Shown: in pieces, positions 3,669-53,174 of the stretch
How positions within the stretch are numbered: position 1 is the first letter of the stretch
How the letters are laid out: the number at the start of each line of letters is the position of its first letter
Assembly: GCA_963555985.3 (NCBI GenBank)
Contig: OY820591.1
Span: forward strand, 64,001-128,000
Length of the DNA: 64,000 bases
Direction: 5' to 3'
Source of the DNA: Dehalococcoidia bacterium
GTDB lineage: Bacteria > Chloroflexota > Dehalococcoidia > Bin125
Program-made: the position numbers and the translations under genes
Notes under the pieces: model-generated
What the model saw: only the letters and a program-made list of their open reading frames with translations
Databases searched by the model: none
What the model was told of the DNA's origin: nothing

Positions 3669-3751
3669 GAGTTCTTGCGGGAGCGATCGCAGCGTGGGCG
3701 GTTATTCTGGGGGCCGGCTCCGCTCAGGGTCAGAGAGTGAGGGATGGCGCC

Positions 3752-4138
3752 ATGAATGAGGCGGCGACGCGCTACCGCGACCAGGGGCATGTGTATTTGG
3801 CCCAGGCGAGGGAGGAGTTCGCGCGCGAGGACCTGATGCAGGCCTCCGAGAAGGCTTGGGGGGCGGCGGCGCAATTGGTCAAGGCGGCGGCGGCGGATCG
3901 GGGATGGAGGCACGGTCGCCATGCGACGCTCTATCAGGTTGTGCGACAACTAGTGGAGGAGACCGGGGTTGACGCGCTCAGGCTGGAGTTCGCGGTCGCC
4001 GGAGAGTTGCACGCCAATTTCTACGAGGGGTTCCTCGCGCCGGCAGTAGTCGAGGACTACTTGCAAGATGTGGCCCGCTTCGTCGAGCGGGTCGAGGGAT
4101 TGCTCAACGGTACCTCCGACAACGGAGCGGGAGACTAG
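3752..4138 (+). CDS. PaREP1-family HEPN-like protein
   Basis: QASEKAWGAAAQLVKA..H..LHANFYEG signature. Confidence 0.8.
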   Translation: MNEAATRYRDQGHVYLAQAREEFAREDLMQASEKAWGAAAQLVKAAAADRGWRHGRHATLYQVVRQLVEETGVDALRLEFAVAGELHANFYEGFLAPAVVEDYLQDVARFVERVEGLLNGTSDNGAGD

Positions 4139-4476
4139 AGATCGATATCGATCTCCTCCTTGAGCGGTGTCTTGCCTTCGGGGAGGGTGAAGAAGTTGCA
4201 GAAACAGGCGCCCTCGAAGTCGACCAGGCCGTTGAGCACCGGTTCGCAGACGCAGATCGTGTCGTCGTTGTTGGCGGGTTGGCAGGGGCAGTAGAACTTG
4301 CCGAAGCGCAGGCGCATGTTGACGAAGTCGTTGATCGTCTGGTCGGCGTTCATGAGGATGTAGCCGCGCTCTTCGCAGAACTGGTCGGCCAGTTCGGTCA
4401 TTTCGGCGCGGTACTGCTCGCGCAGCGCCCGTTCTTCCTCTTCCGGCAGATCGGTCAGGCGCTCAAACTCGCTCAT
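4135..4476 (-). CDS. Ferredoxin-thioredoxin reductase catalytic subunit-like protein
   Basis: GKFYCPC..ICVC..GACFCNFF three-CxC pattern; overlaps the pepA stop. Confidence 0.8.
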   Translation of the reverse strand: MSEFERLTDLPEEEERALREQYRAEMTELADQFCEERGYILMNADQTINDFVNMRLRFGKFYCPCQPANNDDTICVCEPVLNGLVDFEGACFCNFFTLPEGKTPLKEEIDIDL

Positions 4477-5984
4477 GATCCGTTCCCTTCAGCTTGGGCG
4501 GCGACGCGGCCTTCGGCAAACCGTACCAGCGAGCGTACCGGTACGCCGGTCGCGCCCTTGACTTGGGTGCCGCGCACTTTGCTTGCGTCGTCGGTGCCGG
4601 CCATGTCGAGGTGGGCCCAGGGCGTGTCTCCGGCGAAGCGGGCGAGGAACTTGGCGGCGGTGATCGCGCCCGCCAGGCGGCCGCCGGTGTTCTTGATGTC
4701 GGCGACCTGGCTGCGAATCTGCTCGTCGTATTCGCCGAACATGGGGAGCTGCCAGATCTTCTCGCCGGCGCGCTTGCCGGCCGCGATCACCTCGGCCGCC
4801 AGGTCGTCGTCGTTGACCATCAGGCCGGTGGCGACATCGCCGAGCGCGACCGCGCAGGCTCCGGTCAGCGTGGCCACGTCGATCAGTGGCGAGAGGCCCA
4901 GGTGGTTGGCGTAGGAGAGGGCGTCGGCCAGCACGAGGCGGCCTTCGGCGTCGGTGTTGATCACCTCGATCGTGGTGCCGTTCATCGCGGTCAGCACGTC
5001 GCCGGGCTTGATCGCGTTGCCGCCGGGCATGTTCTCGGTGCAAGGCGCGAGCGCGGTCACGTTGATCGGCAGGCCCAGGTCGGCGATCGCGCCCATCGCC
5101 GCCACGACTGCGGCTGCGCCGGACATGTCTTGCTTCATCGCCTCCATGTTTGCGGCGGGCTTGATTGAAATGCCGCCGGTGTCGAAGGTGATGCCCTTGC
5201 CGCAATAGCCCAGCCCCGGCTCGGAGCCGCCGCCGCGATGGCGCAGGATCAGGAACTTGGCGGGCTGGTGCGAACCCTTGGCTACGCCCAGGAATGAACC
5301 CATGCCCAGCTCCGCCGCCGCCGCCTCGTCGAGGACCTCGATCTCGATCCCGTGATCGCCGGCCCAAGCCTCGGCGCGAGCGGCGAGTTCCGTGGGGGTA
5401 AGCACGTTGGAGGGTTCGTTAGCCAGATCGCGGGCGAAGTTGGCCGCTTCTGCGAGTGCGCGCCCGTGCGCGATCCCCGCCTCGACAGCGGCCACGCTGG
5501 GACTGTGCAGCGAGGCGCGCTCCAGCACATTTGGCGATTGCTCCGGCGTCTGATGGCGGTCGAAGCGGTAGAGGCCCAGCAGCAGGCCCTCGGTGATTGC
5601 GCCTGCGATCTCCTCCGCGGTCAACCCGCATTCCTCGCCGTCGACCGCGATGGCGAGCGAGCCGGAGGCCATTCCCCGCGCTCGGCGCGCGCCGGTCGCG
5701 GCGGCGTTGCGGATCTCGTCCAGCCCCATCTTCTCCGCCGGGCCCAGCCCCGCGATCACCGCGCGCGAGGCTGTTGTCCGGCCCAGCGTGTGCACGACGA
5801 CCGCTTCGCCGGCCTTGCCGGAGAGTTCGCCCGAAGCCGCCAGCGGCGCTAAGCCGCCGTCCAGCGCTTCGTTCAGGGCGCGGACCGCGCCTCCGTCGAG
5901 GATGTCGTCGCCTTTGGTGGCGAATACCAGCAGGTGGTCGGCCGCCGCCTCAATTGCGGGCGCGGCGCTCGCGGTGATCTCCAT
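4473..5984 (-). CDS. pepA: Leucyl aminopeptidase (M17)
   Basis: GKGITFDTGGISIK, MKQDMSG, NTDAEGRLVLAD, WAHLD motifs. Confidence 0.97.
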   Translation of the reverse strand: MEITASAAPAIEAAADHLLVFATKGDDILDGGAVRALNEALDGGLAPLAASGELSGKAGEAVVVHTLGRTTASRAVIAGLGPAEKMGLDEIRNAAATGARRARGMASGSLAIAVDGEECGLTAEEIAGAITEGLLLGLYRFDRHQTPEQSPNVLERASLHSPSVAAVEAGIAHGRALAEAANFARDLANEPSNVLTPTELAARAEAWAGDHGIEIEVLDEAAAAELGMGSFLGVAKGSHQPAKFLILRHRGGGSEPGLGYCGKGITFDTGGISIKPAANMEAMKQDMSGAAAVVAAMGAIADLGLPINVTALAPCTENMPGGNAIKPGDVLTAMNGTTIEVINTDAEGRLVLADALSYANHLGLSPLIDVATLTGACAVALGDVATGLMVNDDDLAAEVIAAGKRAGEKIWQLPMFGEYDEQIRSQVADIKNTGGRLAGAITAAKFLARFAGDTPWAHLDMAGTDDASKVRGTQVKGATGVPVRSLVRFAEGRVAAQAEGNGS

Positions 5985-6157
5985 GTCGTCCCTGTTTCCA
6001 GCGCAGGCGCTTGTGCTCGATGATGATCCTACAGAACGGCTGGGTTGGCGTGGAGGGAGAGGGGAAAGGCACGGTAGGGACTGGACGGTCGCGGTTTGCG
6101 GCCTGACGGGGGCTGTAAGAAAAAAACGAGGTGGGGTCGCCGCTTGCAGTCGGGGGA

Positions 6158-6514
6158 TTACTGCGGCTCTTCCTCTTCCTCGAGGCTGTCGTCGTCGTCC
6201 GGCAGGGGCACGTCTTCGCCGCGCATGAGGGCGACGGCGATGGCGTGGGGATGGAGGTGGAGTTCTTTCTTCTGCTCGGGAGTGAGCGGAGCTTCGGGGA
6301 GTCTGGGGGAGTGGTTGGCTCGGGGTTTGGGCGCGGGTTCGGGGTGGGGTTCGAGGTCGAGCGCGTGGTGGATCTCGCGGCTCTTGGCGTTGGAGGGGGA
6401 GAGTTCGCGGACGAGGAGGGCGAGCGCTTTGATGCGGACGTGGCCGGCTTCGTTGGAGTGGGCGATTTGGCCGACGCCGGTCATGCTGGACTGGTAGGTG
6501 TAGTCGAAGGGCAT
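6158..6514 (-). CDS. 118-aa acidic-tailed hypothetical protein, paralog of 43040..43396 (putative small-terminase-like partner)
   Basis: MPFDYTYQSSMTGVGQIA..RELSPSNAKSREIHHAL..LPEAPLT..ALMRGEDVPL aligns end to end with 43040..43396; AAGGA RBS-like site upstream. Confidence 0.8.
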   Translation of the reverse strand: MPFDYTYQSSMTGVGQIAHSNEAGHVRIKALALLVRELSPSNAKSREIHHALDLEPHPEPAPKPRANHSPRLPEAPLTPEQKKELHLHPHAIAVALMRGEDVPLPDDDDSLEEEEEPQ

Positions 6515-6633
6515 GGCGGGGTGTTCCTTTCTTGGGGAATGAAGGACTCTTGAGCTTATCTGGATGGATGTTCGGATTGCAAGTTGGTTGGATGTGTTGT
6601 GGTTGTCGTTGGGGGGTTGGGTGCTGGTCACGG

Positions 6634-6750
6634 CGAGATACCCGCGACGGGGCGCGGGTATGACGGAGCTTTTTGGGAATGACGGAGTTCTGGGCGCGGG
6701 CATGACGGAGCCTTTTGGGAATGACAGAGGGGGCGCGGGAATGAGAGGGC
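6634..6750. repeat. Array of CGTC-type palindrome halves (family B) upstream of the small ORF
   Basis: CGAGATACCCGCGACGGGGCGCGGGTATGACG followed by repeated ..ATGACGGAG units; homologous to 42625-42745. Confidence 0.75.
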
Positions 6751-6790
6751 GAGGGTTGGGATGGCAGACTTTAGCGGGGAGGGCGGGCTG

Positions 6791-7522
6791 ATGCGTGCGT
6801 TTTTGCGTGAGCTCGTGGCTGTTGGGGCGGCGGGGCTGCTTTATTTTCTTGTGCGCGGGGCTGTTGTTGATCGTATTGAGGAGGCGTTTCAGCGGGGGCG
6901 GGACATTCTTGAGCTTGAGCGACGGCTGGGTCTCGATTGGGAACTGGCGATCCATGAGCTGATCTTGCACTCGCCGGGGCTGATTGATTTGGCGAACGGG
7001 ACGTATTTCTGGGGGCATATGCCGCTGCTGATCGTGCTGGCAGTCTGGCTCTGGCGGAGCCAGCGCCCGATCTGGCGGGTGTTTCGCAATGCGCTGCTGA
7101 TCTCGGCGGTGGCGGGGATGGTTTCGTACTTTCTCTTTCCGACCGCTCCGCCTCGGCTGATGCCGGAGCTTGGCTACGTGGACACGCTCGCGCTGCGGGC
7201 GGCTCCGGCGTATCAGGCGCAGGAGGTGGGGTTGTTCGTTAATCCCTATGCGGCGCTGCCGAGTCTGCATGTGGGCTGGGCGCTGCTGGCGGGGATCGCC
7301 TGTTGGCAGGCCGGACGGCGATCTTTGGGCGCGACGGCCTGGGTTTGGTACGTCCTGGCGCTGCTGATTCCGTTTTCGCAGAGTTGGGCGGTGGTGGCGA
7401 CGGCCAATCACTGGACGTTGGATGCGTTTGCGGGGATCGCGGTCTGCGCGATTGCCTGGTCGATCGTGATCCTGGCGAATAGGCTGAGTTTCAGATCGCC
7501 CGTCCAATTCAAGAGGAGTTGA
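6791..7522 (+). CDS. PAP2-family membrane phosphatase/phosphotransferase (AUR1/IPC-synthase-like)
   Basis: FPTAPPRL, NPYAALPSLHVGW, VATANHWTLDA; several hydrophobic segments. Confidence 0.88.
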   Translation: MRAFLRELVAVGAAGLLYFLVRGAVVDRIEEAFQRGRDILELERRLGLDWELAIHELILHSPGLIDLANGTYFWGHMPLLIVLAVWLWRSQRPIWRVFRNALLISAVAGMVSYFLFPTAPPRLMPELGYVDTLALRAAPAYQAQEVGLFVNPYAALPSLHVGWALLAGIACWQAGRRSLGATAWVWYVLALLIPFSQSWAVVATANHWTLDAFAGIAVCAIAWSIVILANRLSFRSPVQFKRS

Positions 7523-7524
7523 CG

Positions 7525-7839
7525 ATGCTCGTCGTGACCACGCCAACGGTGCCGAACCGCGAGATTTACGAGGTGCTTGGGATCGTGAGCGCGAACAGCG
7601 TGCGCTCGCGGAACGTAGGGCGCGACATCGTCGCCGGCCTCAAGAGCCTGATCGGGGGCGAAGTGCATACCTACACGAGGCTGATGACGGAGACGCGGGA
7701 GCAGGTGCTGGAAAAGCTGGAGGCCTCCGCCGAGCGGATGGGGGCGGACGCGATCGTGGGCGCGCGGATGATGACGTCGGATATCGGCCAGAATATGGCT
7801 GAGGTCTACATGTACGGCACGGCGGTGAAGCTGAGGTAG
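7525..7839 (+). CDS. YbjQ/UPF0145 family protein
   Basis: RNVGRDIVAGLKSLIGGE..GADAIVG..YGTAVK; alternative start TTG 7519. Confidence 0.92.
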   Translation: MLVVTTPTVPNREIYEVLGIVSANSVRSRNVGRDIVAGLKSLIGGEVHTYTRLMTETREQVLEKLEASAERMGADAIVGARMMTSDIGQNMAEVYMYGTAVKLR

Positions 7840-7842
7840 GGG

Positions 7843-8142
7843 TTAGCGCCGGGGGTAGGAGGGCGGGTCGATTCCCTTGTAGGCGATGTCGCGCGGCAAG
7901 ATGCGAGTCACGCTGATAGTTCGACTGCCCTGTTGATTGGCGAAGATCAGGCGATAGCCGTTAATCCGCCGGCGAAAGAGATCGGGGTTGTTGTCCAGTT
8001 GAATCGTGCCCGGCCCAAATGGGTTACGGCGGAGTTCGCGCAAACATTCGTTCACAACGCGCCGAAGTCGCAGTGACAGTTCCGCCCGCTGGCGTTGAGC
8101 AGCCGGTTGCAGCCGAACCTGGTAGTTCAACGACGGAGGCAC
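7843..8142 (-). CDS. RelE/ParE-family toxin
   Basis: YQVRLQPAAQRQ..LRRNPF..FRRRINGYRLIF..VTRILPR pattern; about 100 aa and basic. Confidence 0.7.
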   Translation of the reverse strand: MPPSLNYQVRLQPAAQRQRAELSLRLRRVVNECLRELRRNPFGPGTIQLDNNPDLFRRRINGYRLIFANQQGSRTISVTRILPRDIAYKGIDPPSYPRR

Positions 8143-8145
8143 TGG

Positions 8146-8607
8146 CTAGTCGACAAACTCATCGGGGCAGAGCTGTTCCAGCTCCTCAAGCGAGACTGCG
8201 GCTTTTTCGTCGGGGTCCCACTCGTAGCGGATGTAGTGAATGTCGTCCCAATCTTCCGCGGGCGTGAATACGTAGCTGTACGGCGTTCCCTTTGGCGAAA
8301 GCCGAAACGGCGGCGGCTCCGTCGCGAGCCCGAGCGCCTGATCCCAGCGCCCGTTTGGAGATCGAATTCGGATTCGCTGGATGTACACGTCATCGGGCAC
8401 ACGACTGGCGGGCTCGTCGTCTTCGCGGAAGGTGGCGAAGTCGAAGTCGTGCATGGCGTCATCGGCCAGATGCTCGTCTTGCAGGTGCTCCGCTTCATCC
8501 ATGCGGGCGCGCAGCCAAGCGACCGGATCGTCTCCGGCCTCCGCCCGCAGGCGCGCGCACTCGCTGCGCAGCCACTCCTGCTGATTCTGCTCTTCCTGAG
8601 CGACCAC
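8146..8607 (-). CDS. Acidic hypothetical protein, putative antitoxin of the downstream RelE
   Basis: Ends 3 bp before the toxin; very acidic; C-terminal AVSLEELEQL resembles antitoxin xxxWEEL helices. Confidence 0.55.
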   Translation of the reverse strand: MVAQEEQNQQEWLRSECARLRAEAGDDPVAWLRARMDEAEHLQDEHLADDAMHDFDFATFREDDEPASRVPDDVYIQRIRIRSPNGRWDQALGLATEPPPFRLSPKGTPYSYVFTPAEDWDDIHYIRYEWDPDEKAAVSLEELEQLCPDEFVD

Positions 8608-8618
8608 CAGCGCACTCC

Positions 8619-8963
8619 TCAGTTGTGGTGCTGGAAGATTGGGAGCGGGGCGAGGGGGGCGTAGATCTCGACGGAGAGCTCGTAGACCTGCTCGGCCCAG
8701 CGATCCCAGTCCTGTCTCGCGGCCCGCGCTTCTTCGGACGAGAACGCCTGCTGCACGGCTGACTCGTTCTCGAACATGTAGCCCATCAGGTGGGCTCCGG
8801 CGATCGGGTCTGCGGAGCGGACGCGGAAGGCGGAGACGATGCCCGGGATTTCAAGTACGTGGGGGAGATGGGTCTGGCGATGCCAGCGCTCGAACTCTTC
8901 GAGCACGGAGGGATCGATCCGGGCGCGGACGATCATGATTGGGTGGCGTTGCAATGGCGTCAC
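8619..8963 (-). CDS. EthD/DUF4286-like dimeric alpha-beta barrel protein
   Basis: EEFERWHRQTHLPHVLEIPGIVSAFR pattern. Confidence 0.65.
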   Translation of the reverse strand: MTPLQRHPIMIVRARIDPSVLEEFERWHRQTHLPHVLEIPGIVSAFRVRSADPIAGAHLMGYMFENESAVQQAFSSEEARAARQDWDRWAEQVYELSVEIYAPLAPLPIFQHHN

Positions 8964-9168
8964 CTACACAGTCTCGCACTTCCGGCCCATAGACGGGAGC
9001 GGCGCGGCTGTCCGGGGTGTGCGTAATCCACTTTGCGCTGACTTGTTCCGGTTCGCCCTCAGCGGCTGCGCTCTGATAGTGTGATTGCGTCGCGCAGCGG
9101 GTACAGCGCCGACATCCGGTGGGGGGACAGACAGGAATCCCCAACCGCACCGCAGCCGGTGGGAAGCA

Positions 9169-39025: not shown

Positions 39026-39351
39026 GGAGGTTTTGGGCCGGCGAGCGTGCGAGTTGATCTGGTTTGCCGCTCGCTCTATCGTTGAGCCTTGAGCACCCAG
39101 CTCTGGGTCGCCAAATGTTCGGAGTTGAGCCCACTCTCGGCCTTCGACGTATTCCGGCAGTCCAGTCCCGGTCACCACACCTTCGGTGGTCGGAGCGCCA
39201 CCGAAACCAGGACCGGCGCGTTGGATCGCTCGATGCAGCGCCGAACCACGGGACCTCGCTTGGCTCCATACGAACGTGGCGTCTTACCGCTGGGGAATTC
39301 TCTGGACGCCCCCACTCACTGCGAGCGGGGGCGTCCGGCTGATTGGCGATC

Positions 39352-40005
39352 ATGTCACAACGGGTTTCGTTGTTCATCGACTACCAGAACGCATACGGCC
39401 AAGCACGCGACCTGTTCCACCAGCCGGATGACGATCCCACCTGCGGGCAGTTTCGCCCCTGGGCGCTTGGCGAATTCGTCTGCGGCCAGTACAACGAGCG
39501 ACATCCTGGGGAACCGCCCCTGGAGCTGAATGAAGTGCGGCTCTATCGGGGAGAGCCCGTGCGGCGAATGAGCCAGGTTGCATATGACGCCTTTCAACGC
39601 CAGCGCGCTGCCTGGGAGCAGGCGGGCGTGCAAGTCTTCTCAGCACCATTGCAGTATGACCAGCATGGCGAACCGCAGGCTGAGAAAGAGATCGACGTAC
39701 AACTCGCGATTGACTTCGTCATTGGCGCGGTCGAGCGGACATACGATGTTGGCGTGCTCTTCTCATTCGATCGCGATCTGCTACCGGCACTGCGATACGT
39801 TCGTGCGCAGCAGGCAAGCCACTGCCGGGCCGACGTTGCCGGCTGGGGCGGGATCAGAGACGGTAGATACTTGAGTCCGCCTGGTCAACGCCCTGTTCGT
39901 CATCTGGTTGGCAAGTCGGATTATCAGCGTCTGGCGGACGCCACCGACTATACGAAGCGAAGCTCGAACTATCGCCGAGCTCGACGACAGCGCCGCCGCC
40001 GCTGA
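39352..40005 (+). CDS. NYN (LabA/DUF88, PIN-like) domain protein 1
   Basis: LFIDYQN, EKEIDVQLAIDFV, LFSFDRDLLPAL motifs. Confidence 0.9.
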   Translation: MSQRVSLFIDYQNAYGQARDLFHQPDDDPTCGQFRPWALGEFVCGQYNERHPGEPPLELNEVRLYRGEPVRRMSQVAYDAFQRQRAAWEQAGVQVFSAPLQYDQHGEPQAEKEIDVQLAIDFVIGAVERTYDVGVLFSFDRDLLPALRYVRAQQASHCRADVAGWGGIRDGRYLSPPGQRPVRHLVGKSDYQRLADATDYTKRSSNYRRARRQRRRR

Positions 40006-40507: not shown

Positions 40508-41902
40508 CTAGCCGATGGCGGCTCGGCGCGGAGGACGGGGCGGTTCGTCGTCGGCCGGTTCGGTCGAGCGAATGTCGTCGGCGTCGAGCATGTGCCCCAT
40601 CTTCTCGTGTTTGACCGAGAGATAGCGCACGTTGTGGGGGTTGGCGCTGGCGATCACGGGCACGCGCTCGACGATTTCGAGGCCGTAACCGGCGAGACCG
40701 TGGCGCTTGGCCGGGTTGTTGGTCATCAGGCGGATGCGGGAGACGCCGAGGTCGCGCAGAATCTGCATCCCGATTCCGTAGTCACGGCGGTCGGGGGCAA
40801 AGCCGAGCGCGAGATTGGCTTCGACCGTATCCATGCCCTGATCCTGGAGCGCGTAGGCGGCGATCTTGTTGTGCAGACCGATCCCGCGGCCCTCCTGAGC
40901 CATGTAGACGATCACGCCGCGGCGCTCTTCGGCGACCATGCGCATAGCCAAGTCCAACTGCTCGCCGCAGTCGCAGCGCTGGGAGCCGAAGACGTCGCCG
41001 GTGAGGCATTGCGAGTGGACGCGGACGAGGGTGGGATGTTCGCCGTTGACGTGACCCATCACCATCGCTACGTGCTCTTCGGCGTGGTCCGAGGTGCGGT
41101 AGCCGATCAGCCGCCAGGTGCCGTGCGCGGTCGGCAGCTTGGCCTCGGAGACGCGCTCGACCAGCTGCTCGGTGCGCAGGCGATACTGGATGATCTGCTC
41201 AACCGAGACAATCTTGAGCTTGTGGCGCTTGGAGAAGCGAACGAGCTCAGGCAAGCGCGCCATCGTGCCGTCGCGCTTCATGATCTCGCAGATCACCGCA
41301 CCCGGCTGGAGTCCGGCCAGACGGCAGAGATCGACCGAAGCCTCGGTCTGGCCGGCGCGGACGAGCACGCCGCCGTCGCGGGCGCGGAGCGGGAACATAT
41401 GCCCCGGCCGCACGAGGTCGTCGGGGCCGGAGTTGAGATCCATCAAGACTTGAATCGTGCGGGCGCGGTCGTGGGCGGAGATGCCGGTGGTGACGCCGGT
41501 GCGAGCTTCGACGCTGACCGTGAAGGCGGTGCCGAGCGGCGCCGTGTTCTGTCCGACCATCGGGTAGAGGCTGAGTTGATCGAGCCGATCGCCGTCCATG
41601 GGTACGCAGATCAGTCCGCGCGCGTGGGTGGCCATGAAGTTGATCGTGTCGGCGGTCACGAACTGGGCGGGCAGCGCGAGATCGCCCTCGTTCTCGCGAT
41701 CCTCGTCGTCCGTGATGATCAGCATTTCGCCCTGGGCGAAAGCCTCGATCGCCTCTTCGACGGTGCAGAAGGGAGACTGCCTGCGCTTGGACGCGCGGCG
41801 CTTGGCGGGCTTGCGCCGCGCGCGCGGCTGCTTCGCCGCCGCTTCCCGGCCGGCGCTCTCATTGGCGGGAGCGGATTCAGGGACGGACTCGGCCTCAGTC
41901 AT
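40508..41902 (-). CDS. ribBA: Bifunctional DHBP synthase/GTP cyclohydrolase II
   Basis: DDEDRENEGD, RPGHMFPL, VRVHSQCLTGDVFGSQRCDC, QEGRGIG, MTNNP; start 41902 overlaps the ribE stop (alternative 41941). Confidence 0.96.
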   Translation of the reverse strand: MTEAESVPESAPANESAGREAAAKQPRARRKPAKRRASKRRQSPFCTVEEAIEAFAQGEMLIITDDEDRENEGDLALPAQFVTADTINFMATHARGLICVPMDGDRLDQLSLYPMVGQNTAPLGTAFTVSVEARTGVTTGISAHDRARTIQVLMDLNSGPDDLVRPGHMFPLRARDGGVLVRAGQTEASVDLCRLAGLQPGAVICEIMKRDGTMARLPELVRFSKRHKLKIVSVEQIIQYRLRTEQLVERVSEAKLPTAHGTWRLIGYRTSDHAEEHVAMVMGHVNGEHPTLVRVHSQCLTGDVFGSQRCDCGEQLDLAMRMVAEERRGVIVYMAQEGRGIGLHNKIAAYALQDQGMDTVEANLALGFAPDRRDYGIGMQILRDLGVSRIRLMTNNPAKRHGLAGYGLEIVERVPVIASANPHNVRYLSVKHEKMGHMLDADDIRSTEPADDEPPRPPRRAAIG

Positions 41903-42536
41903 GGATTCCCCCTCCGGCGAGATCGAGTTGGGGTCGGTCATGGCTTTCCCGTTCCGCTTCTCTGGCGCTGATCAGCGCGTCCACATAGCGCGCGAGGATG
42001 TCGGTCTCCAGATTCACCTCGTCGCCCGCTCGGCGGTCGAGCAGGTTGGTGTGCTCCTGAGTGTATTGAACCAGGGAGACGGCAAAGCCCAATTCGTCCT
42101 TGTCAATAATCGTGAGCGAAACGCCGTCGATGCAGATGGGCCCTTTGACGATCATGTAGCGAAGCAGTTCGGGCGGCGCGTCGTAGGAGACGACGATCGC
42201 GTCGGCCTCCGGGCGGGTGTCGCGGAAGGCGCCGCGCCCCTCAACCACGCCGCGCACCAGATGCCCGCTGAGCCGATCCATCGGCCGCACCGATCGCTCC
42301 AGGTTGACCCGCGCTCCCGCTCCGAGTTGGCCCAGATTGGAGCGGCGGTAGGTCTCGGGCATCACGTTGGCGAGGAAGCGATCGCCGTCGATTGCAGTGA
42401 CGGTGAGGTCAACGCCGTTAATGGCGATGGAGTCGCCGAGCTTGGCGTCTGCGAGGATGAGGGGAGCGTGGATCCAGAGGAGTCCGTCGTCGGCTTGGTC
42501 GATCAGGCCGACTTCTTCGATGATGCCGGTGAACAC
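41895..42536 (-). CDS. ribE: Riboflavin synthase alpha chain
   Basis: MFTGIIEE, GDSIAINGVDLT, VNLER, KGPICIDGVSLT, VNLETD motifs. Confidence 0.97.
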   Translation of the reverse strand: MFTGIIEEVGLIDQADDGLLWIHAPLILADAKLGDSIAINGVDLTVTAIDGDRFLANVMPETYRRSNLGQLGAGARVNLERSVRPMDRLSGHLVRGVVEGRGAFRDTRPEADAIVVSYDAPPELLRYMIVKGPICIDGVSLTIIDKDELGFAVSLVQYTQEHTNLLDRRAGDEVNLETDILARYVDALISAREAERESHDRPQLDLAGGGIHD

Positions 42537-43039
42537 GTGCGCCTCCTGGGTTTGGGGTCATGGTACCTGGGAGGCTGGCTTTTGGGCGTTGGGGCGTCCC
42601 CTCGCCCCAGCTCCTTCCGCCTACCTCCGTCATACCCGCGCCCAGAGCTCCGCCATCCCCGCCCCAACAAGCTCCGTCATACCCGCGCCCCGTCGCGGAG
42701 CCTGTCCCCGCGAAGGCGGGGATCACTCGCCGCGACCAGCACCCCAGCCCCGGCCGCCTCCCATTTCCGTCATTCCTGCGCAGGCAGGAACCACGAACCT
42801 CCCAACCCCCAAACGCAAATCAAAACCCCCGCCGTACCCCGACCGCCCCAAACCCCAACTCCCCTCTCCCCCCTCCGCGGAGCCTGTCCCCGCGTAGGCG
42901 GGGAGGGAGATGTCCCGTAGGGACAGAGGGGGGGGCGCCCCTCAAATGCCAACCACGACACACCCCCAAATTACCCACCCGAACACCCATCCATATAAGA
43001 TCAAGTGTCCTTCATTGAGCAAGAGAGGAACCCGGACCC

Positions 43040-43396
43040 ATGCCCTTCAACTACAGCTACCAGTCCGCCATGGCCGGCGTCGGCGAGCTCGCCTTCTCCA
43101 AGCGCGAACCCGGCTACGTCCGCGCCCAAGCCTTCGCCATCCTGCGCCGCGAACTCTCCCCCGCCAACCCCAAGAGCCGCGAGATCCACTACGCGCTCGG
43201 CATCGAACCCCACCCCGAGCCCCCGCCCCGGCCCAACCATTCCCCCCACCTGCCCGAAGCCCCGCTCACCGCTGAGCAGCAGAAGGAGTTCCACCTCCAC
43301 TCGGTCCACGCCCAAGCAGCCGCCCTCATGCGCGGCGAAGACGTCCCCCTGACGGAGGACGAGGAAAGCGAAGAGGAAGAGGATGAGCCACAGTAA
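43040..43396 (+). CDS. 118-aa hypothetical protein, putative small-terminase-like subunit
   Basis: Overlaps the TerL start by 14 nt; GAGAGGA RBS; paralog at 6158-6514. The TerS role is inferred from position. Confidence 0.75.
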   Translation: MPFNYSYQSAMAGVGELAFSKREPGYVRAQAFAILRRELSPANPKSREIHYALGIEPHPEPPPRPNHSPHLPEAPLTAEQQKEFHLHSVHAQAAALMRGEDVPLTEDEESEEEEDEPQ

Positions 43397-44804
43397 TACC
43401 CCCAGCTCAAAGCGGGCGGTCGTTGCGTTCGACCGCTTGCACAAGTCTCGCGGTTTTTTTCCGACGGACAGACAGCGCGAGCTCTGTTGCGCAGTCGCTA
43501 CCGTGCCCAATCCCGGCCTCGCCCTGGTCGGCTACGGCGGCGCCATGGGCGGCGGCAAGACCCGCGCCCTGGCCGAGCTCGCCCTGGACGCGGCCTTGAT
43601 CTTCCCGGGCAACAACATCCTGCTCGCACGCGACACGTTCACAGACCTCTACACCACGACCATGGGCGAGTTCCTGCGCATCTGCACCGCAGACCCCGAC
43701 CTCACTGTCCAACGCCGCAGTTCACCCACCCATTCCCTCACGGTCAGCAGCCTCCAGTACTCGAGCGAACCCTCCACGATCCACTTTCGCCATCTCTCCG
43801 ACTGGACCGGACTCGGCTCCCAGCAGTACGGAACCGTGCTCATAGACGAAGCCGGCGAAGTGGCCGAAGAAGCCGCCCAAATGCTCTTGACCAGACTCCG
43901 CCACCCGGCCCAACCGCAACGCTGGTTCGTGGCCGCCTCCAACCCCCATCCAGGCTGGTTCGAGCGCTGGTTCGTCCAACGCGAACTGAACAAAGCTGAA
44001 CTGGAGCACGCCGGCGGACAAGCCCGCTTCATCCCCGCCAAGATCGAGGACAACCCCTATCTCCCGGACAACTACGCCGAGCAGCAGCGCGCCCTGCTCC
44101 CGCCCGACTGGGTCGAACGCTTCATCGAGGGCCGCTTCGACGCCTTCGACGGCCTCGTCTACCCCAAATTCGACCCCAAGCTGCACTGCTGGACGGGACG
44201 CCTACCCAGCTTCGAGCGCTACATCGGCGGCCTCGACTTCGGCGCTCAGACCGAGCAAGCCCACTACACCGCCGGCATCGTCGCCGGCCTCACCGCCCGC
44301 TACGCCGTCTGCGGACCCAACGTCTTGATCCGCCTGGCCGAGTTCGAGGACAGAGGCCCCGGCGTCACCCAGCGGCTCGAACAGTGGATGCTCCAGTGCC
44401 GCCGGCGCTTCGGCTCAATCAGTTGGAACGCCGACCGCAGCCAATCCGCCTGGATCGACCATCTTCACCGCCGCGGCCGCGACATCCGTCCCAGCCGGGG
44501 CGGGCCCGGCTCCGTCCACCAGGGCATCGGCCTGGTCCAAGAGCGGCTCGCCGCCGACCCGCCCCAGTCCTTCTACACCCCCGAGCTCGTCCAGTTCCCG
44601 CGCCGCATGAGGGAGTACCAGTGGCGAGACCCCCGCGCCGCCAACCCCCAACCCCGAGACCGCGACGACGACCTCCTGGACGCCGACCGCTACTGCCACG
44701 AGCTGGCCCAACCCCAGCCCCAAGCCCCAACCACCCGGATCGAGTTCTTCCACCTCCCGCCCGTCGACCGCGGCCGCATCGCCAGCATGAGAAACCAGCT
44801 CTAA
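43383..44804 (+). CDS. Phage terminase large subunit-like protein (ATPase plus RNase H-like nuclease)
   Basis: PTDRQ adenine-binding motif, GGAMGGGKT (Walker A), VLIDEA (Walker B), ASNP coupling motif, DNPYL, GLDFG and DDDLLDADRY nuclease motifs. Confidence 0.92.
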   Translation: MSHSNTPSSKRAVVAFDRLHKSRGFFPTDRQRELCCAVATVPNPGLALVGYGGAMGGGKTRALAELALDAALIFPGNNILLARDTFTDLYTTTMGEFLRICTADPDLTVQRRSSPTHSLTVSSLQYSSEPSTIHFRHLSDWTGLGSQQYGTVLIDEAGEVAEEAAQMLLTRLRHPAQPQRWFVAASNPHPGWFERWFVQRELNKAELEHAGGQARFIPAKIEDNPYLPDNYAEQQRALLPPDWVERFIEGRFDAFDGLVYPKFDPKLHCWTGRLPSFERYIGGLDFGAQTEQAHYTAGIVAGLTARYAVCGPNVLIRLAEFEDRGPGVTQRLEQWMLQCRRRFGSISWNADRSQSAWIDHLHRRGRDIRPSRGGPGSVHQGIGLVQERLAADPPQSFYTPELVQFPRRMREYQWRDPRAANPQPRDRDDDLLDADRYCHELAQPQPQAPTTRIEFFHLPPVDRGRIASMRNQL

Positions 44805-45067
44805 CCCATGCCCACCCACAATTCCGTCATCCCCGCCCCCAAGAATCTCCCCCTCAAGGGGGAGATGCCCCAACGGGGCAGAGGGGGTGAAACGCCACCC
44901 CCAGCACAAACGCCCCCAACCAACCTCCCCTCTCCCCCTCTGCGGAGCCTGTCCCCGCGCACGCGGGGAGGGAGATGCCGCGCAGGCGGGGGACAGAGGG
45001 GGGTACCCACCCCCAGCATCCAAGCCCCAAGCAACCCCCAAGGAGACCTGCGCGTAATCCCAAATTC

Positions 45068-45172
45068 CGTCATTCCAGGCTTGACCTGGAATCTCGTCCA
45101 GAATTGCAGACTATCTGGTCGGAGCGAGATTCCAGCGTTCGCCGGAATGACGAGAGCAACGGGAATAGCCAA
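45068..45172. repeat. Family A doublet, inverted copy of 14351-14452
   Basis: Both palindromes, the spacer CTATCTGGTC and the flank GAGAGCAACGGGAAT match the 14351-14452 element. Confidence 0.88.
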
Positions 45173-45180
45173 GTGAGGCG

Positions 45181-46773
45181 CTACTCGGTGAGGGCTTTGA
45201 TGAGGGTGTTGAGGCCGTTGGGGGATTTTCGGTAGTAGCGGTAGCCGGCCTTGCGCCAGCTATCGGCGGTGGGGGCGTTTCGGGAATGGAGCGGGGCTGT
45301 GATCCATTGGCGCTCGCGGCCTTGTGCGGAAGCTTCGGAGGCTTCGCGGAGGCGTTCGGCGGCGCTGGGAGCGGCGCCTGCTCGGAGAGTGAGGCAGACC
45401 AGTTCGGCGCTCTCGCGCTCGGCCGGCAGACGCAGCGCGGCCACGCCGAGCGCGGGACGTCCGCGCTCGGCGCTTGCCATCCAGAGCACAGCCTCGCCCC
45501 GCCGAGCCTCTTCGAGCAGGGTTGCGGCCATGGGCGGAAGTTGGGCGGCGGCCAAGAGTTCATCGATCTCAGCTGCGTCGGCGGGGCCGGCGGGACGCAG
45601 GCGGATATCGAGTTCGTGCTCGGGCGGCGTGGGATAGCCGCTGATCAGGAGGTCGTCGCCCAGCTGCTCGACGCTGAGGCCGGAGAGCCGGAGCGCGTCG
45701 CGCATCCGCTCGGCGCCGCGCCCGCGCACGGCGGTCTGAGCGTCGCCGCCGATCAGCATCGGCGCGACGACGGCGTGGACTTTGTCGATCAGGCGTTGGT
45801 CGAAGAATGCGCCCAGGACTTCGCCCCCGCCCTCGACCAGCAGGTGGACGACGCCGGCCTGCTGTCCGAGCTGGTCGAGCAAGGGTTCGAGGGGGACGCG
45901 CCCGTGCTCGGCGGGGAGCGTGAGCACGCTGACGCCGCGCGCTTCGAGGCTGACGCGCCAGTCTTCGGGCGCAGCCTCGGTAGTCGCGATCAGAGTGGGG
46001 GAAGTGTCGATCCCGTCCAGGATGCGCGCATCGAGAGGAGTGCGGCCGCGGCTGTCGAGCACGACGCGGAGCGGTTGGGGCACGGGTCCGCGCCAGTCGG
46101 CGGGGCGGGCGGTGAGTTGAGGGTTGTCGAGCAGGATCGTGCCGACGCCGACCAGGATGGCGTCGAAACGGGGTCGGTTCTGGTGCGCCCAAGCGAGCGT
46201 CTGAGGACCGGAGATCCAGCGGGAGTCGCCGCTGACGGCGGCGATCCGTCCGTCGAGCGAGGCGGCGAACTTGGCCGAAACGAAGGGGCGTCCGCTGCGG
46301 CGGTGATGTTGGTACGGCTCGTAGTGTTGCGCGGCCTGGGCTGCGTCGTCGCCGACGCTGACGCTGATGCCGGCCTTGCGGAGTTGTTCGAGTCCGCGTC
46401 CGGCGACTTGGGGATCGGGGTCGAGGCAGGCGACGACGACTTGGGCGACGCCGGCGCGGATCAGAGCGTCGGCGCAGGGCGGGGTGCGTCCCTGGTGGGC
46501 GCAGGGTTCGAGGGTGACATAGAGGGTGGCGCCCCGGGCTTGGGCGCCAGCCTGGCGCAGGGCGACCGCTTCGGCGTGAGGGCCGCCCGGGGGCTGGGTC
46601 GCGCCTTCACCGACGATCCGGATCGATTGGCGGCGCTCGTCGCTGCGGGGGTGTTGGACGAGGACTGCGCCGACGGCGGGGTTGGGGCTGGTCCAGCCGA
46701 GCGCGGAGCGGGCGAGTTCGAAGGCTCGCGCCATGGGGCGGGAGAGTGCGGGTTGGGCGGGCGTGGTCGTCAT
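45181..46773 (-). CDS. ribD: Riboflavin biosynthesis deaminase/reductase RibD with C-terminal GNAT-like extension
   Basis: SPNPAVG, HAE, TLEPCAHQGRTPPC, ASLDG, DNPQLT, LVEGG motifs; about 150 extra C-terminal residues. Confidence 0.95.
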   Translation of the reverse strand: MTTTPAQPALSRPMARAFELARSALGWTSPNPAVGAVLVQHPRSDERRQSIRIVGEGATQPPGGPHAEAVALRQAGAQARGATLYVTLEPCAHQGRTPPCADALIRAGVAQVVVACLDPDPQVAGRGLEQLRKAGISVSVGDDAAQAAQHYEPYQHHRRSGRPFVSAKFAASLDGRIAAVSGDSRWISGPQTLAWAHQNRPRFDAILVGVGTILLDNPQLTARPADWRGPVPQPLRVVLDSRGRTPLDARILDGIDTSPTLIATTEAAPEDWRVSLEARGVSVLTLPAEHGRVPLEPLLDQLGQQAGVVHLLVEGGGEVLGAFFDQRLIDKVHAVVAPMLIGGDAQTAVRGRGAERMRDALRLSGLSVEQLGDDLLISGYPTPPEHELDIRLRPAGPADAAEIDELLAAAQLPPMAATLLEEARRGEAVLWMASAERGRPALGVAALRLPAERESAELVCLTLRAGAAPSAAERLREASEASAQGRERQWITAPLHSRNAPTADSWRKAGYRYYRKSPNGLNTLIKALTE

Positions 46774-50142: not shown

Positions 50143-50763
50143 ATGCCTCAGCGCGTCGCCCTGTTCATTGATTGGCAGAATGCCCTGATCGGGGCTCGAA
50201 ACCTCTATCACTCCAGAAGAGGCTCGCGGCTTCCAACCGATGGCCAGTTCGATCCGGTGCAGCTGGGCGAACTGATCTGTCAGCGAGCCGGAGGAGGTGA
50301 GGACCGTCAGCTCAGTCAGGTGCGGGTCTACTGCGGGTTGGCGGATCGTCGTCTTGATCCCAAAACGCATCAGGCACGGTCACGTCAGGCGGCCGCGTGG
50401 CGAATGGCTGGCGCGACGACTGTCATGCGTCCACTGCAGTACCTGCGGGATCGTGAAACCGGCTTTCGGCGGGCACGCGAAAAGGGTATCGACGTCGCAA
50501 TCGCTGTCGACTTCGTCACGATGGCTGTACGAGGAATTTACGATGTCGGAGTCCTCTTCTCCGCTGATACAGATTTGCGTCCGGCGCTTGAGTACGTCGC
50601 ATATTTTCACCCCGAAGTCCGGGTGGAGACGGTGGCTTGGCGCGCGGACGGACGCAGCCGTCCACTCACATTTGACTCGCCGTACTCCACCTGGTGTCAC
50701 CAACTCGATGAAGTGGACTACGACCGGGTGCGCGATCTGACCGACTACCGCCCGGCTCGCTGA
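50143..50763 (+). CDS. NYN (LabA/DUF88, PIN-like) domain protein 2
   Basis: LFIDWQN, REKGIDVAIAVDFV, LFSADTDLRPALE; paralog of 39352-40005. Confidence 0.9.
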   Translation: MPQRVALFIDWQNALIGARNLYHSRRGSRLPTDGQFDPVQLGELICQRAGGGEDRQLSQVRVYCGLADRRLDPKTHQARSRQAAAWRMAGATTVMRPLQYLRDRETGFRRAREKGIDVAIAVDFVTMAVRGIYDVGVLFSADTDLRPALEYVAYFHPEVRVETVAWRADGRSRPLTFDSPYSTWCHQLDEVDYDRVRDLTDYRPAR

Positions 50764-50801: not shown

Positions 50802-53174
50802 ATGTTGCGGGACTACCGGATTCTTGATCTGGCGGATGAGCGGGGGTTGATTGGGGGGATGATTCTGGCTGATTTGGGGGCGGATGTGATTGCGGTGGAG
50901 CCTCCGGGCGGGAATGCGGCGCGGCAGCGGGGGCCGTTTGCGAATGGGGCGGGAGTTGAGGATTCTCTGATCTGGCAGGCGTGGGCTCGAGGGAAGCGGT
51001 CGGTGGTCTTGGATCTGGACACGGAGGAGGGACGGGCGGCGTTTCGGGAGTTGACTCGGGGGGCGGACGCGATCATCGAGTCGGACGAGGTTGGGGCGAT
51101 GGCGGCGCGGGGGCTGGGATACGAGGAGCTAGCGGCGGAGAATCCAGGCCTGGTCTACGCGGCGATTACGCCGTTTGGGTCGAGCGGTCCCAAGGCGGGT
51201 TGGGCGGCGACAGATATCACGGTGGCGGCTGCGGCGGGGCCGATGGCGCAGAGCGGAGACCGTGATCGTGCGCCGTTGCGGGTCGACTTGCCGCAGACGG
51301 GGTTGCACGCCGGAGCGGAGGCGGCGATCGGGGTGCTGATGGCGCTGCACGAGCGGCGGCGGTCAGGACGGGGACAGTTTGTGGATGTGTCGGCGCAGGC
51401 GGCGTATGCGCAGGCGACCCAATCGGGGATTCTGGCCGCGCCCAATCATGCAACGCTGTTTGGGCGATCGGCGATCGGCGCTGCGATGGGTCCGCTGGAG
51501 ATTCGGTTGTTCTGGCCGTGCAAGGACGGGCATGTTGCTATTACATACTTGTTTGGCGCTGCAATTGGTCCGTTTTCGGCTCGCTTAATGCAGTATGCGT
51601 ATGAAGAAGGCTTCTGCGATGAAGCAACGCGAGACAAGGATTGGTTAAACTATACGAACTTGCTACTGACCGGGCAGGAGCCGATTACCGAATACCTTCG
51701 CTGTTGCGAAGTGGTGGGAGCGTTGTGCGCGGAGAAGACGAAGGCGGAACTGTTTGCCGTCGCGCAGGAGCGGCGTTTGCTGCTGGTGCCGGTTTCGACC
51801 GTGGACGATCTGGATCAGAACGCGCACCTGGCGGCGCGCGAGTACTGGCGCGAGTTGGAGCTGAACGGTCAGACGGCGCGCTTTCCGGGGCCGTTCGCGC
51901 GGCTTTCGGGGACGCCGATCCAATACGAGCGCCCCGCGCCGAAGCTGGGCGAGCACACGGACGAGGTGCTGGGCGAATCGCGTTCGGCGGCGAGCCTGCA
52001 CGGCGCGGACTCGGACAACACCGATCCGCCGCTCTCCGACCTGAAGATGCTCGACCTGATGTGGGTGATGGCGGGTCCGGCCGGTACCCGCGCGCTGGCC
52101 GATTTCGGCATCGACACGGTGCGGGTGGAGTCGAGCGTGCGGATCGATACGGCGCGCACGCTGCAACCGTTCATCGACGACGATCCGACCCAGCCGGAGG
52201 GGTCGGCGATGTTCCACAACATGAACGCGAACAAGCGGATGACGACGGTCGATCCGGCCAATCCGGCCGGGCGCGAGCTGCTGCTCGACCTGGTGCGCTG
52301 GGCTGATGTGGTGACGGAGTCGTTCACGCCGCGCGCGATGCGGGGCTGGGATCTGACCTGGGAGACGATCCACGAGGTCAACCCGCGCGTGATCATGATG
52401 TCGTCCTGCCTGATGGGTCAGAACGGGCCGCTGGCGGAGTTTGCGGGGTTCGGCAACCTGGCGGCGGCGTTTGCCGGATTCACGCCGCTGTGCGGCTGGC
52501 CGGATCGGTCCCCGGCAGGTCCATTCGGGGCCTACACGGACTACGTGGCGCCGCGCTTCGCCTCGGCGGCGCTGCTGGCGGCGTTGGAGGAGCGGGAGCG
52601 AACGGGTCAGGGACAGTACATCGACGTCTCGCAGATGGAGGCGGCGATTCACTTCCTCACACCGGCTCTGCTGGACTACCACCTGAACGGGACGATCTGG
52701 TCGCCGAGCGGCAACGACGATCCACACATGTCGCCGCATGGGGTGTATCCGTCGGCAGGAGCCGACCAGTGGGTCGCGATCGCGTGCCGCGATGACGCCG
52801 AGCGAGCGCAACTCGCTTCGCTGACAGGCGAACTGACAAGCGAGGCGATCAGCGCCTGGACGCAAGCGCGTTCGCCGGAAGAGGCGACGGATGCGTTGCA
52901 GGCCCTGGGCGTGCCGGCGCACGGCGTCCAGACGAGCGCGCACCTGGCGATGGATCCGCAGTTGGCGCATCGCGGGCACCTGGTCGAGATGCGCCACCCG
53001 ACCCAGAATCACTCGGTGGTCGAAGGGGCGCGGATCGTGATGTCGCGGACACCCGCGCGAGCGCCGACGGTCGCGCCGACGATGGGCGCGGACAGCGACA
53101 CGGTGCTGCGGGAGTTGCTGGGTTACAGCGATGAGCAGGTCGTGGAGCTGGTGGCGTCGGGGGCGTTGCAATAG
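50802..53174 (+). CDS. Family III CoA-transferase (CaiB/BaiF), two-domain fusion
   Basis: Two repeats: LADLGADVIAVEPP..GKRSV..APKLGEHT and MAGP..LADFG..NKR..APTMG. Confidence 0.93.
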   Translation: MLRDYRILDLADERGLIGGMILADLGADVIAVEPPGGNAARQRGPFANGAGVEDSLIWQAWARGKRSVVLDLDTEEGRAAFRELTRGADAIIESDEVGAMAARGLGYEELAAENPGLVYAAITPFGSSGPKAGWAATDITVAAAAGPMAQSGDRDRAPLRVDLPQTGLHAGAEAAIGVLMALHERRRSGRGQFVDVSAQAAYAQATQSGILAAPNHATLFGRSAIGAAMGPLEIRLFWPCKDGHVAITYLFGAAIGPFSARLMQYAYEEGFCDEATRDKDWLNYTNLLLTGQEPITEYLRCCEVVGALCAEKTKAELFAVAQERRLLLVPVSTVDDLDQNAHLAAREYWRELELNGQTARFPGPFARLSGTPIQYERPAPKLGEHTDEVLGESRSAASLHGADSDNTDPPLSDLKMLDLMWVMAGPAGTRALADFGIDTVRVESSVRIDTARTLQPFIDDDPTQPEGSAMFHNMNANKRMTTVDPANPAGRELLLDLVRWADVVTESFTPRAMRGWDLTWETIHEVNPRVIMMSSCLMGQNGPLAEFAGFGNLAAAFAGFTPLCGWPDRSPAGPFGAYTDYVAPRFASAALLAALEERERTGQGQYIDVSQMEAAIHFLTPALLDYHLNGTIWSPSGNDDPHMSPHGVYPSAGADQWVAIACRDDAERAQLASLTGELTSEAISAWTQARSPEEATDALQALGVPAHGVQTSAHLAMDPQLAHRGHLVEMRHPTQNHSVVEGARIVMSRTPARAPTVAPTMGADSDTVLRELLGYSDEQVVELVASGALQ

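Follow-up and report, generated by a model that had tools for sequence, protein, structure and literature searches.

A short cassette between pepA and a PAP2 phosphatase gene of a Dehalococcoidia bacterium, a probable reduced member of a multicopy terminase family

The intergenic region between the divergent pepA and PAP2-family phosphatase genes of a Dehalococcoidia bacterium is occupied by a small cassette on the minus strand (positions 6068-6750 of the window, that is, of the whole 64,000-nt stretch G000:C1:64001-128000 that was analysed). Its layout matches that of a plus-strand cassette in the same window (42950-44816), of which it is a reduced sibling: the small gene is kept, and a stump is left of terL, the gene of the large terminase subunit (TerL). 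On balance, and with slightly better than even confidence, we take the focal element to be a reduced member of a lineage-specific multicopy family that derives from a phage terS-terL packaging module, TerS being the small terminase subunit. Comparison with related genomes indicates that the cassettes entered intergenic DNA of this lineage by insertion, and substitution and indel patterns indicate that selection keeps all five terL genes and nearly every small gene intact.

Results

Focal and sibling cassettes are 79% identical in DNA sequence across 485 nt (E 1.5e-110), and their small open reading frames (ORFs; 6158-6514 on the minus and 43040-43396 on the plus strand), both encoding 118 aa, have 81/120 identical residues in common (68%, BLASTP E 1e-48). 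The leader block CCGAACA.CCATCCA.ATAAG.TCAAG.GTCCTTCATT and the ribosome-binding site AAGAAAGGAAC are found in both. The terL start ATG at 43383 corresponds to AAG at 6169-6171 in the focal copy, within the end of the small ORF, and the remainder amounts to about 43 codons' worth of terL, out of frame, without a start and devoid of all catalytic motifs. FFSYSPRQ..VPTVPFP is the correct translation of 6068-6126, and the focal tail has the T7 run and CAGTC(C/G)CTACCGTGCC in common with terL codons 25-43. Similarity to the sibling stops at 6068, ahead of Walker A (GGAMGGGKT, codons 52-60). Thus, the alignment bears out a sequence-only reading of this DNA, which had described a truncated sibling with the TerL start changed from ATG to AAG and a remnant ending before Walker A: leader, 118-aa ORF, altered start and terL remnant are all present, with the translation as described and a shared end at 6068. 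Genome-wide, 26 of the 27 matches to the 16-mer CAGTC(C/G)CTACCGTGCC (at most two mismatches) sit behind a small ORF. In the focal leader, 16-17 nt separate the promoter-like boxes TTGCAA and GATAAG, and the upstream hairpin of the REP type forms a 9-12 bp stem in a DNA fold. RNA and DNA folds of the tail of this type (B type, as distinct from the A type of the sibling) were no better than shuffles (z 0.0 to 0.3).

A census of all G000 contigs detected 30 cassettes at 29 loci, so that other copies exist and full and reduced versions coexist as proposed: five carry a full terL, and about 25 reduced cassettes keep the small gene without an intact TerL. Besides the five full TerL there are four longer remnants. 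Full-length TerL is always accompanied by the small gene. The cassette on contig C9 lies on a 95-99% variant of the C1:421721 locus, and the 30 cassettes therefore count as 29 loci. Matches to the small ORF number 28, comprising 26 open frames of 116-126 aa, one divergent frame of 107 aa (C1:2321710) and one fragment (C1:677633). A 100-nt leader profile (nhmmer) gave 30 strong matches (E up to 4e-9), 28 before small ORFs and 2 before a third ORF type; the two extra cassettes (C1:906k and C1:776k) combine this third small-ORF type with a terL stump. Altogether, the small ORF is intact in 29/30 cassettes. The G000 assembly is 96% complete with a 'contamination' figure of 7.5%. All ten small contigs (C2-C11) are variants of C1 regions at 95-99% identity, so the assembly contains pieces of a second strain, which probably account for this figure; among them only C9 spans a cassette locus, and the cassette is present there. 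A segment of 767 kb (C1:923000-1690000) is free of cassettes, compared to a mean spacing of about 108 kb (rough chance about 0.01), and the GC skew of G000 gave no clear origin or terminus.

In pairwise BLAST of all loci, reduced copies have a common right end about 88-93 nt past the small-ORF stop, while full copies end 1420 nt past it, which is 12 nt past the terL stop. At 19 of the 27 tabulated copies the end falls on one base (...TACCGTGCC; ...TACCGTGC(C)), followed by unrelated sequence. Because so many copies have the same 3' end, the reduced form must have multiplied as such, after the shortening. Copy C1:922813 matches terL for about 6 nt beyond the common end, and the other truncations end at terL residues of about 55 (C1:2481080), 57 (776k), 62 (906k) and 69 (C1:759471). 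Five independent end points thereby fall inside about 80 nt of the 1.4-kb terL, with a rough chance of about 1e-5 if ends fell evenly after codon 43. A stump in the related genome G018 ends at TerL residue 52, and 5/7 truncated TerL matches in other Dehalococcoidia metagenome-assembled genomes (MAGs) end at residues 63-88, in a scan that could detect only stumps containing Walker A or the ASNP motif.

The left side is unsharp. Before the leader, most copies carry the hairpin TCCGTCATACCCGCGCyCCGyCGCGGGTATCTCG plus CCGTGACCAGCAC, preceded by one to five half-units between which other small palindromic repeats are sometimes nested. These upstream CTCCGTCAT.CCCGCGC repeats are members of a REP/REPIN-like family found throughout the genome: of the 65 hairpin copies, 27 precede a small ORF and 38 lie elsewhere than at cassettes, and the 16-mer core has 432 genome matches at no more than two mismatches. 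Because the family is genome-wide, the repeat array alone is no evidence of shared descent; that evidence lies in leader, ORF and tail. The same upstream array, which had been read as a sign of kinship, is indeed present but has lost this meaning, and the idea that repeats, promoter and genes form one unit is retained for leader, ORF and tail, the left side being a variable array of the genome-wide REP. The hairpin often occurs as REPIN-like inverted doublets of about 110 nt (TCCGTCATTGCCGCG...CGAGATACCCGCG...ATGACGGA), for example at C1:308140, 447087 and 633494.

Both window loci were compared with 23 relatives from nine other genera of the same family. ribD adjoins ribE in 23/23 of them and is 2645 nt away in G000; likewise, pepA and PAP2 are divergent neighbours in 23/23, with start-to-start distances of 53-375 nt versus 777 nt in G000. 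As both sites are empty in all relatives, both cassettes are insertions in this lineage. This agrees with the expectation that empty pepA/PAP2 sites might be found, and extends it to ribD-ribE, where the cassette sits inside the operon and points against it. Within the species, contigs covering the pepA-side junction (5184-6115) did not differ across three public runs of one study, and those from two of these runs extend from PAP2 into the REP array (6642-9000). Contigs of four runs of one study contained no joint skipping the cassette, but the short contigs break at the repeat and are thus uninformative on empty alleles.

Median dN/dS of the small ORFs was 0.38 for comparisons among A-type copies, 0.32 among B-type copies and 0.57 across the two types, with dS of 0.21-0.35. 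Coding indels were multiples of three in 10/10 cases, versus 1/16 in leader and tail; the absence of stop codons was weakly informative (P 0.03 and 0.08). These comparisons indicate that the small ORF is kept open by selection, in line with the sequence-only reading. Its further claim that selection acts on the small ORF alone fails, because the tail is more conserved than the ORF (17 B-type copies, median p-distance 0.057 in the 88-nt tail versus 0.10 in the ORF) and two haplotypes of one locus differ chiefly in the ORF. Small gene and non-coding tail are thus both constrained. The leader exists in two swapped versions that both keep the -35- and -10-like boxes.

The small ORFs are mosaic: each of four middle modules was found with both N-terminal types, and 13 module combinations occur across 27 copies. 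Between the two haplotypes of C1:421721 most flank and leader bins contain 0-1 differences per 50 nt, compared to up to 21 inside the ORF, where the bulk of the coding sequence differs and middle and C-terminal modules are exchanged; their REP arrays differ by three extra units and a 14-nt stretch. This pattern shows that small genes swap modules rapidly, by recombination between copies. In two cassettes the small ORFs are identical and the TerL genes have diverged to dS 0.15, which looks like another sign of conversion.

The sibling's product (43383-44804) matches Terminase_6N with 33.3 bits (cut-off 22), Terminase_3 with 32.1 bits (cut-off 23.2) and phrog_2 at 1.6e-26. Seven sequences from four genera are without variation at G50-T60, D155-E156, D285, D351 and D429/430/433/435, which we take to be the Walker A, Walker B and acidic nuclease motifs. 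By these matches and residues, the 473-aa protein is a bona fide TerL. The five full-length copies in G000 are 87-100% identical in amino acids, with dN/dS of 0.10-0.28 at dS 0.12-0.31. An 11-bp hairpin (GCGGGCGGUCG...CGACCGCUUGC; 43410-43470, plus strand, z-score -1.97) lies within the first 25 terL codons, with a conserved U7 run 14 nt later; it is deleted from B-type tails and may be an attenuator of terL expression.

The small protein was approached through a profile of 14 family members, which found 35 representatives among 1.84 billion proteins. It matches P0024, P0030 and P0032 (1.5e-4 to 6e-4) in the C-terminal halves of these 186-196 aa proteins, which in turn match the phrog_51 small terminase at 2e-9 to 5e-9. 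The sole sequence match in the PDB was the TerS of SF6 (E 0.46). On viral contig L117, whose TerL is 42% identical, a 190-aa phrog_51 TerS lies directly upstream, and hhalign pairs its core helix (VR..A..LL) with the cassette protein's VRIKALALL helix at a probability of 45%. The AlphaFold model (pLDDT 68.8) consists of a helical hairpin at residues 7-38 (helices 7-18 and 24-38, pLDDT about 90), after which come a linker rich in proline, two short helices and a tail of acidic residues. The cassette protein begins at the hairpin; compared with it, the relatives of 186-196 aa and the viral TerS of 190 aa are extended at the N terminus by about 90 residues. In a test for the DNA-binding domain of TerS the small protein proved to lack it, and what is left resembles the core of a TerS.

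Complex prediction for the focal B-type protein and TerL gave a score of 0.45 (runs 0.02, 0.46 and 0.45; best control 0.00), with agreement of at least 45% of contacts between runs and a partner pLDDT of at least 51. The mark applied is reached by 116/157 solved pairs and 2/215 mismatched pairs, 18/157 solved pairs and both mismatches lying at 0.60 or below, and where a pairing is not already likely, a score of 0.45 misleads in the majority of cases. The model thus gives weak support to binding of the small protein to TerL.

Of 40 other genomes that were sampled, 11 contained a TerL of this lineage; they belong to three genera of the family. Where TerL surroundings were annotated (four genomes), no phage genes were found nearby, and a short overlapping ORF upstream of TerL was seen at 5/6 translated loci. 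The small-ORF profile detected 1-8 copies in each of five relatives, exceeding the TerL count in G018 and G006. A scan of species-representative genomes yielded 73 TerL loci, up to five per genome, all but one in MAGs titled Dehalococcoidia, Chloroflexota or Chloroflexi. In genomes other than G000 the small ORF lies directly upstream at 48/62 full TerL loci and is open at 5/6 truncated loci with enough upstream sequence. Among viral contigs, an alignment scan gave 12 TerL loci at 26-45% identity and a single-sequence scan none. The exceptional locus, L185 (VXNE01000402.1, 2.5 kb), has a TerL of 68% identity on a contig binned as Gammaproteobacteria, probably by a binning error rather than after a transfer. 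In some relatives the TerL matches are split near residue 305-312 by about 85-110 nt with the frame open overall (G018:C1:3458744-3460189; G006:C4:98619-100133 and 326787-328232; G013:C38).

The next host gene is co-oriented at 24/29 loci (20/24 reduced, 4/5 full; binomial p about 3e-4) and at most loci starts 87-264 nt after the small ORF. Pfam domains of metabolic or housekeeping type were found in 19 of the 20 downstream neighbours tested, and their functions are unrelated (sulfite reductase, purQ-like, rpoD-like, ndk, acyl-CoA dehydrogenases). No other phage gene was adjacent to the copies examined, and the genes called as neighbours of the 28 copies are cellular. In 96%-complete G000 we found no portal (PF04860, PF05133); the capsid family PF05065 gave only 18.7 bits (C1:1976379), to an ORF without a PHROG match, and G000 contains no homologue of the large ORF downstream of TerL in a related viral contig. 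The large post-TerL ORFs of two viral contigs were discarded as portal probes, as they match no family of Pfam or PHROG and do not resemble each other. Coordinates of the window features are collected in Table 1.

Table 1. Features of the focal cassette, its full sibling and the flanking host genes (window positions)
Feature	Position	Strand	Details
REP tandem array, CCGTCAT-type units (focal)	6621..6750	-	ends in hairpin TCCGTCATACCCGCGCCCCGTCGCGGGTATCTCG (6634-6667) plus CCGTGACCAGCAC
Cassette leader (focal)	6515..6620	-	CAACCACAACACA box; TTGCAA 6577-6582; GATAAG 6555-6560; ribosome-binding site AAAGGA 6525-6530
118-aa small gene, B type (focal)	6158..6514	-	stop TAA 6158-6160
Conserved non-coding tail, terL 5' remnant (focal)	6068..6157	-	T7 run 6120-6126; end motif CAGTCCCTACCGTGCC 6068-6083
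pepA, M17 leucyl aminopeptidase (host)	4473..5984	-	Pfam Peptidase_M17 3e-121; co-oriented, begins 83 nt past cassette end
PAP2-family phosphatase (host)	6761..7522	+	Pfam PAP2_3 8e-41; divergent from pepA
REP array upstream of full sibling	42620..42949	+	interrupted by nested small palindromic repeats
Leader (full sibling)	42950..43039	+	TTACCC, 17 nt, TATAAG; ribosome-binding site
118-aa small gene, A type (full sibling)	43040..43396	+	overlaps terL start by 14 nt
Intact TerL, 473 aa (full sibling)	43383..44804	+	Terminase_6N, Terminase_3 and phrog_2 matches
REP arrays after terL (full sibling)	44817..45180	+	at least 230 nt common to 4/5 full copies
ribE (host)	41895..42536	-	flanks full cassette
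ribD (host)	45181..46773	-	2645 nt from ribE, full cassette between

Further ORFs of the window and its surroundings were recorded in passing. A 133-aa ORF near the focal cassette (3737-4138) is similar in appearance to PaREP1-family genes, and genes of this family adjoin terminase cassettes in two genomes (C1:723842-724189; L042:7584-7943 in G018). Two paralogous ORFs of about 210 aa with like starts (M..QRV.LFID.QNA; 39343-40005 and 50143-50763) flank the rib region and the full cassette. A 790-aa ORF (50802-53174) resembles a tandem fusion of two CoA-transferase family III units, as judged from ORF length and from family III matches in the neighbouring loci of relatives.

Discussion

According to the reading that we prefer, a complete cassette would consist of a REP-type array, a promoter-like leader, a small gene for 107-126 aa and terL, and the reduced cassette of about 0.6 kb would be the same unit stopping 90 nt after the small gene, within the old terL start. 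The small protein would be the partner of TerL, and the reduced copies would therefore supply diversified subunits in trans to the five TerL, on whose genes they would depend. Conserved leader and tail may act as cis sites for expression or recognition; that the leader contains a promoter is suggested by its conservation. Spread would take place at the DNA level, anchored on the left by REP-array homology and bounded on the right by a stretch of terL prone to breakage (codons 43-69), where the nuclease of TerL itself would be the most likely source of the break. Downstream of the small gene no terminator was called, and transcripts are therefore likely to continue into the host gene of the same orientation.

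Several observations weigh against this reading. The TerS identity of the small protein is transitive and weak: the small ORF has no Pfam, PHROG, NCBIfam or PADLOC match, and Foldseek found no match in the PDB at E up to 0.001, the weak rows that include the TerS cores of PaP3 and SF6 (E 5.8-6.6, probability 0.51-0.54) being far from significant. Consensus scans of both window cassettes called neither a sigma-70 promoter nor a terminator, which counts against the promoter part. No empty allele was seen within the species, in run contigs or C2-C11, and the direction of change therefore rests on other genera. As to a mechanism of transposition, we found no terminal inverted repeats (best left-versus-right local alignment score 7) and no target duplication, the 5- and 6-mers after the right end having no consistent upstream position, with counts mostly below and never clearly above swapped-partner controls. 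The Y1 transposase/RAYT domain (PF01797), detected in 6/14 control genomes, was not found in G000, and no integrase was seen beside the copies examined, although no systematic integrase search was made. Moreover, the right end of reduced copies differs from that of full copies, unlike in classical pairs of autonomous and non-autonomous elements. That relation, put forward in the sequence-only reading, is consequently kept as an analogy: the copies have no inverted ends and no target duplication, and nothing observed has TerL moving DNA. An IS200/IS605-like mechanism, suggested by the end hairpins, was dropped for want of a Y1 transposase and of a conserved hairpin at the right end, and so was retro-copying, as the copies include the promoter-like leader and run past the T-run. 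Copy C1:759471 resembles an internal deletion into the 3' REP array. The clustered terL ends could stem from gradual deletion of a dead remnant down to the constrained tail; such erosion accounts for clustering without a special cut, but cannot account for 19 identical ends. Finally, a selfish element of which the active copies alone propagate would likewise show low dN/dS between copies.

The alternatives differ mainly in the role given to TerL, and sequence by itself cannot separate them. There is perhaps a modest chance that the family is a terminase-only selfish or transfer system, with TerL and a TerS devoid of the DNA-binding domain as its sole machinery and with the reduced copies served in trans, either as non-autonomous units born at the TerL cut zone or as about 29 packaging starts into borrowed capsids. 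Rather unlikely, in our view, is a packaging network with a terminase of gene transfer agent (GTA) or satellite type that draws its capsids from elsewhere, be it from a helper phage or from head genes that escaped detection: the leader/tail sites, roughly 29 in number, would serve as packaging starts from which neighbouring chromosome is taken up by headful, and the terL ends would mark the cut zone. Five intact, strongly selected TerL, a conserved non-coding tail and leader, ragged ends within about 80 nt and nearest phage relatives with full TerS plus TerL are all in keeping with such a network, and pac-phage cut zones look similar to the ragged ends. The lack of the DNA-binding domain in TerS also fits, as this is given as the hallmark of the small terminase of RcGTA (PMC6854486). 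A network of this kind does not by itself explain how copies arrive at new loci, and neither a portal nor a capsid was found in the 96%-complete genome, nor was a homologue of the viral post-TerL ORF.

Many intact, expressed-looking paralogues, module shuffling, strain-level turnover concentrated in the ORF and an acidic C-terminal tail typical of TerL-binding ends would also suit anti-phage decoys, in which the diversified TerS-core proteins of the reduced copies poison or redirect phage terminase as a defence repertoire kept by the host; proteins of PICI/SaPI satellites that bind phage terminase subunits are known. We regard this as improbable given that PADLOC found no match, that dN/dS gave no sign of positive selection and that five cognate TerL genes, which a pure decoy would not need, are conserved. 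Equally doubtful is a portable promoter, kept because it drives the downstream host gene, with the small ORF as a passenger or leader. The co-orientation at 24/29 loci, the distance of 87-264 nt to the next gene in most, the -35- and -10-like boxes retained in both leader variants and the absence of a terminator or stable hairpin after the ORF in B-type tails would all be accounted for; an ORF in frame and under purifying selection is unlike a passenger, however, the downstream genes share no function, and the orientation bias could equally result from selection against antisense insertions. That nothing moves at all, the copies being independent decayed prophage remnants or old segmental duplications, we consider scarcely credible: TerL is truncated in most copies and one copy looks like an internal deletion, but 19 copies with one exact end and unrelated flanks, ORFs intact in 29/30 cassettes and the absence of any other phage gene beside the copies examined speak otherwise.

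To our knowledge, terminases are known only from viruses, satellites and GTAs that also provide or borrow a capsid. Searches of the literature at listing level found no description of stand-alone or multicopy terminase cassettes, and no mention of 'terminase' in the papers listed by a sponge/SAR202 search. The family described here would be a two-gene terminase module living on its own, at about 29 places in one genome and recurring in dozens of Dehalococcoidia genomes, with the motor gene retained in few copies and the diversified partner gene in all. If TerL cuts or packages at these sites, this would be a new way of moving DNA within a genome, with a phage nuclease-ATPase as the enzyme of the element, or else a route of gene transfer, new and minimal, among abundant marine and sponge bacteria that are as yet uncultured. 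Even taken at its most modest, the finding is a large family of selected small genes ahead of housekeeping genes such as rpoD, ndk and pepA, a placement that matters for genome annotation and regulation.

Comparison with known systems

Among GTAs, the closest parallel in architecture is RcGTA, whose small terminase is stated to lack the N-terminal DNA-binding domain as a hallmark (PMC6854486). Gp1 and gp2 of RcGTA resemble the cassette pair in a small subunit that begins with a helical oligomerisation part (a putative one in the cassette protein), in its position directly before terL and in the chromosomal location, and differ in that the RcGTA terminase is single-copy and heads a head-tail cluster (PMC6854486), whereas no portal or capsid was found with the cassettes. 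G000 has five copies of the cassette pair plus about 25 of the small gene on its own, and the two systems are likened by architecture, not by sequence. Assignment to the GTA-type TerS is therefore supported by the missing DNA-binding domain and opposed by the missing head-tail cluster.

Pac-type phages (SPP1/SF6, P22) share with the full cassettes the gene order, the stop/start overlap and the Walker A/B and nuclease residues of TerL, and the cassette protein aligns to the conserved core helix of the phrog_51 TerS. We also take the repeats upstream of the small gene to resemble the pac regions upstream of terS. The phage TerS (190 aa on L117) has an N-terminal domain that the cassette protein lacks, and the phage module continues into portal and head genes. 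Satellites such as SaPI/PICI and PICMI are chromosomal, have a small terminase of their own and keep packaging-specificity genes without a full set of virion genes; they are single-copy islands of 5-15 kb with integrase, regulation and replication genes. A cassette, in contrast, measures 0.6-2 kb, about 29 of them occur in one genome, and no integrase was seen beside the copies examined.

Many short and few long copies, intergenic location, a precise shared end and hairpin repeats recall miniature inverted-repeat transposable elements (MITEs) and REPIN-RAYT systems. A shared right end (19/27) and empty sites (23/23) are as in MITEs; terminal inverted repeats, target duplication and a transposase are missing and the left end is fuzzy. 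In addition, and unlike in MITEs, the short cassettes keep a selected protein gene, and short and long forms have no common right end. Hairpins and doublets agree with REP/REPIN elements, from which the cassettes are set apart by the lack of a RAYT. Correia elements of Neisseria, of about 150 bp, have inverted ends and encode nothing, in which the cassettes differ; the two are alike in being dispersed, in lying upstream of and co-oriented with host genes and in carrying promoter-like boxes.

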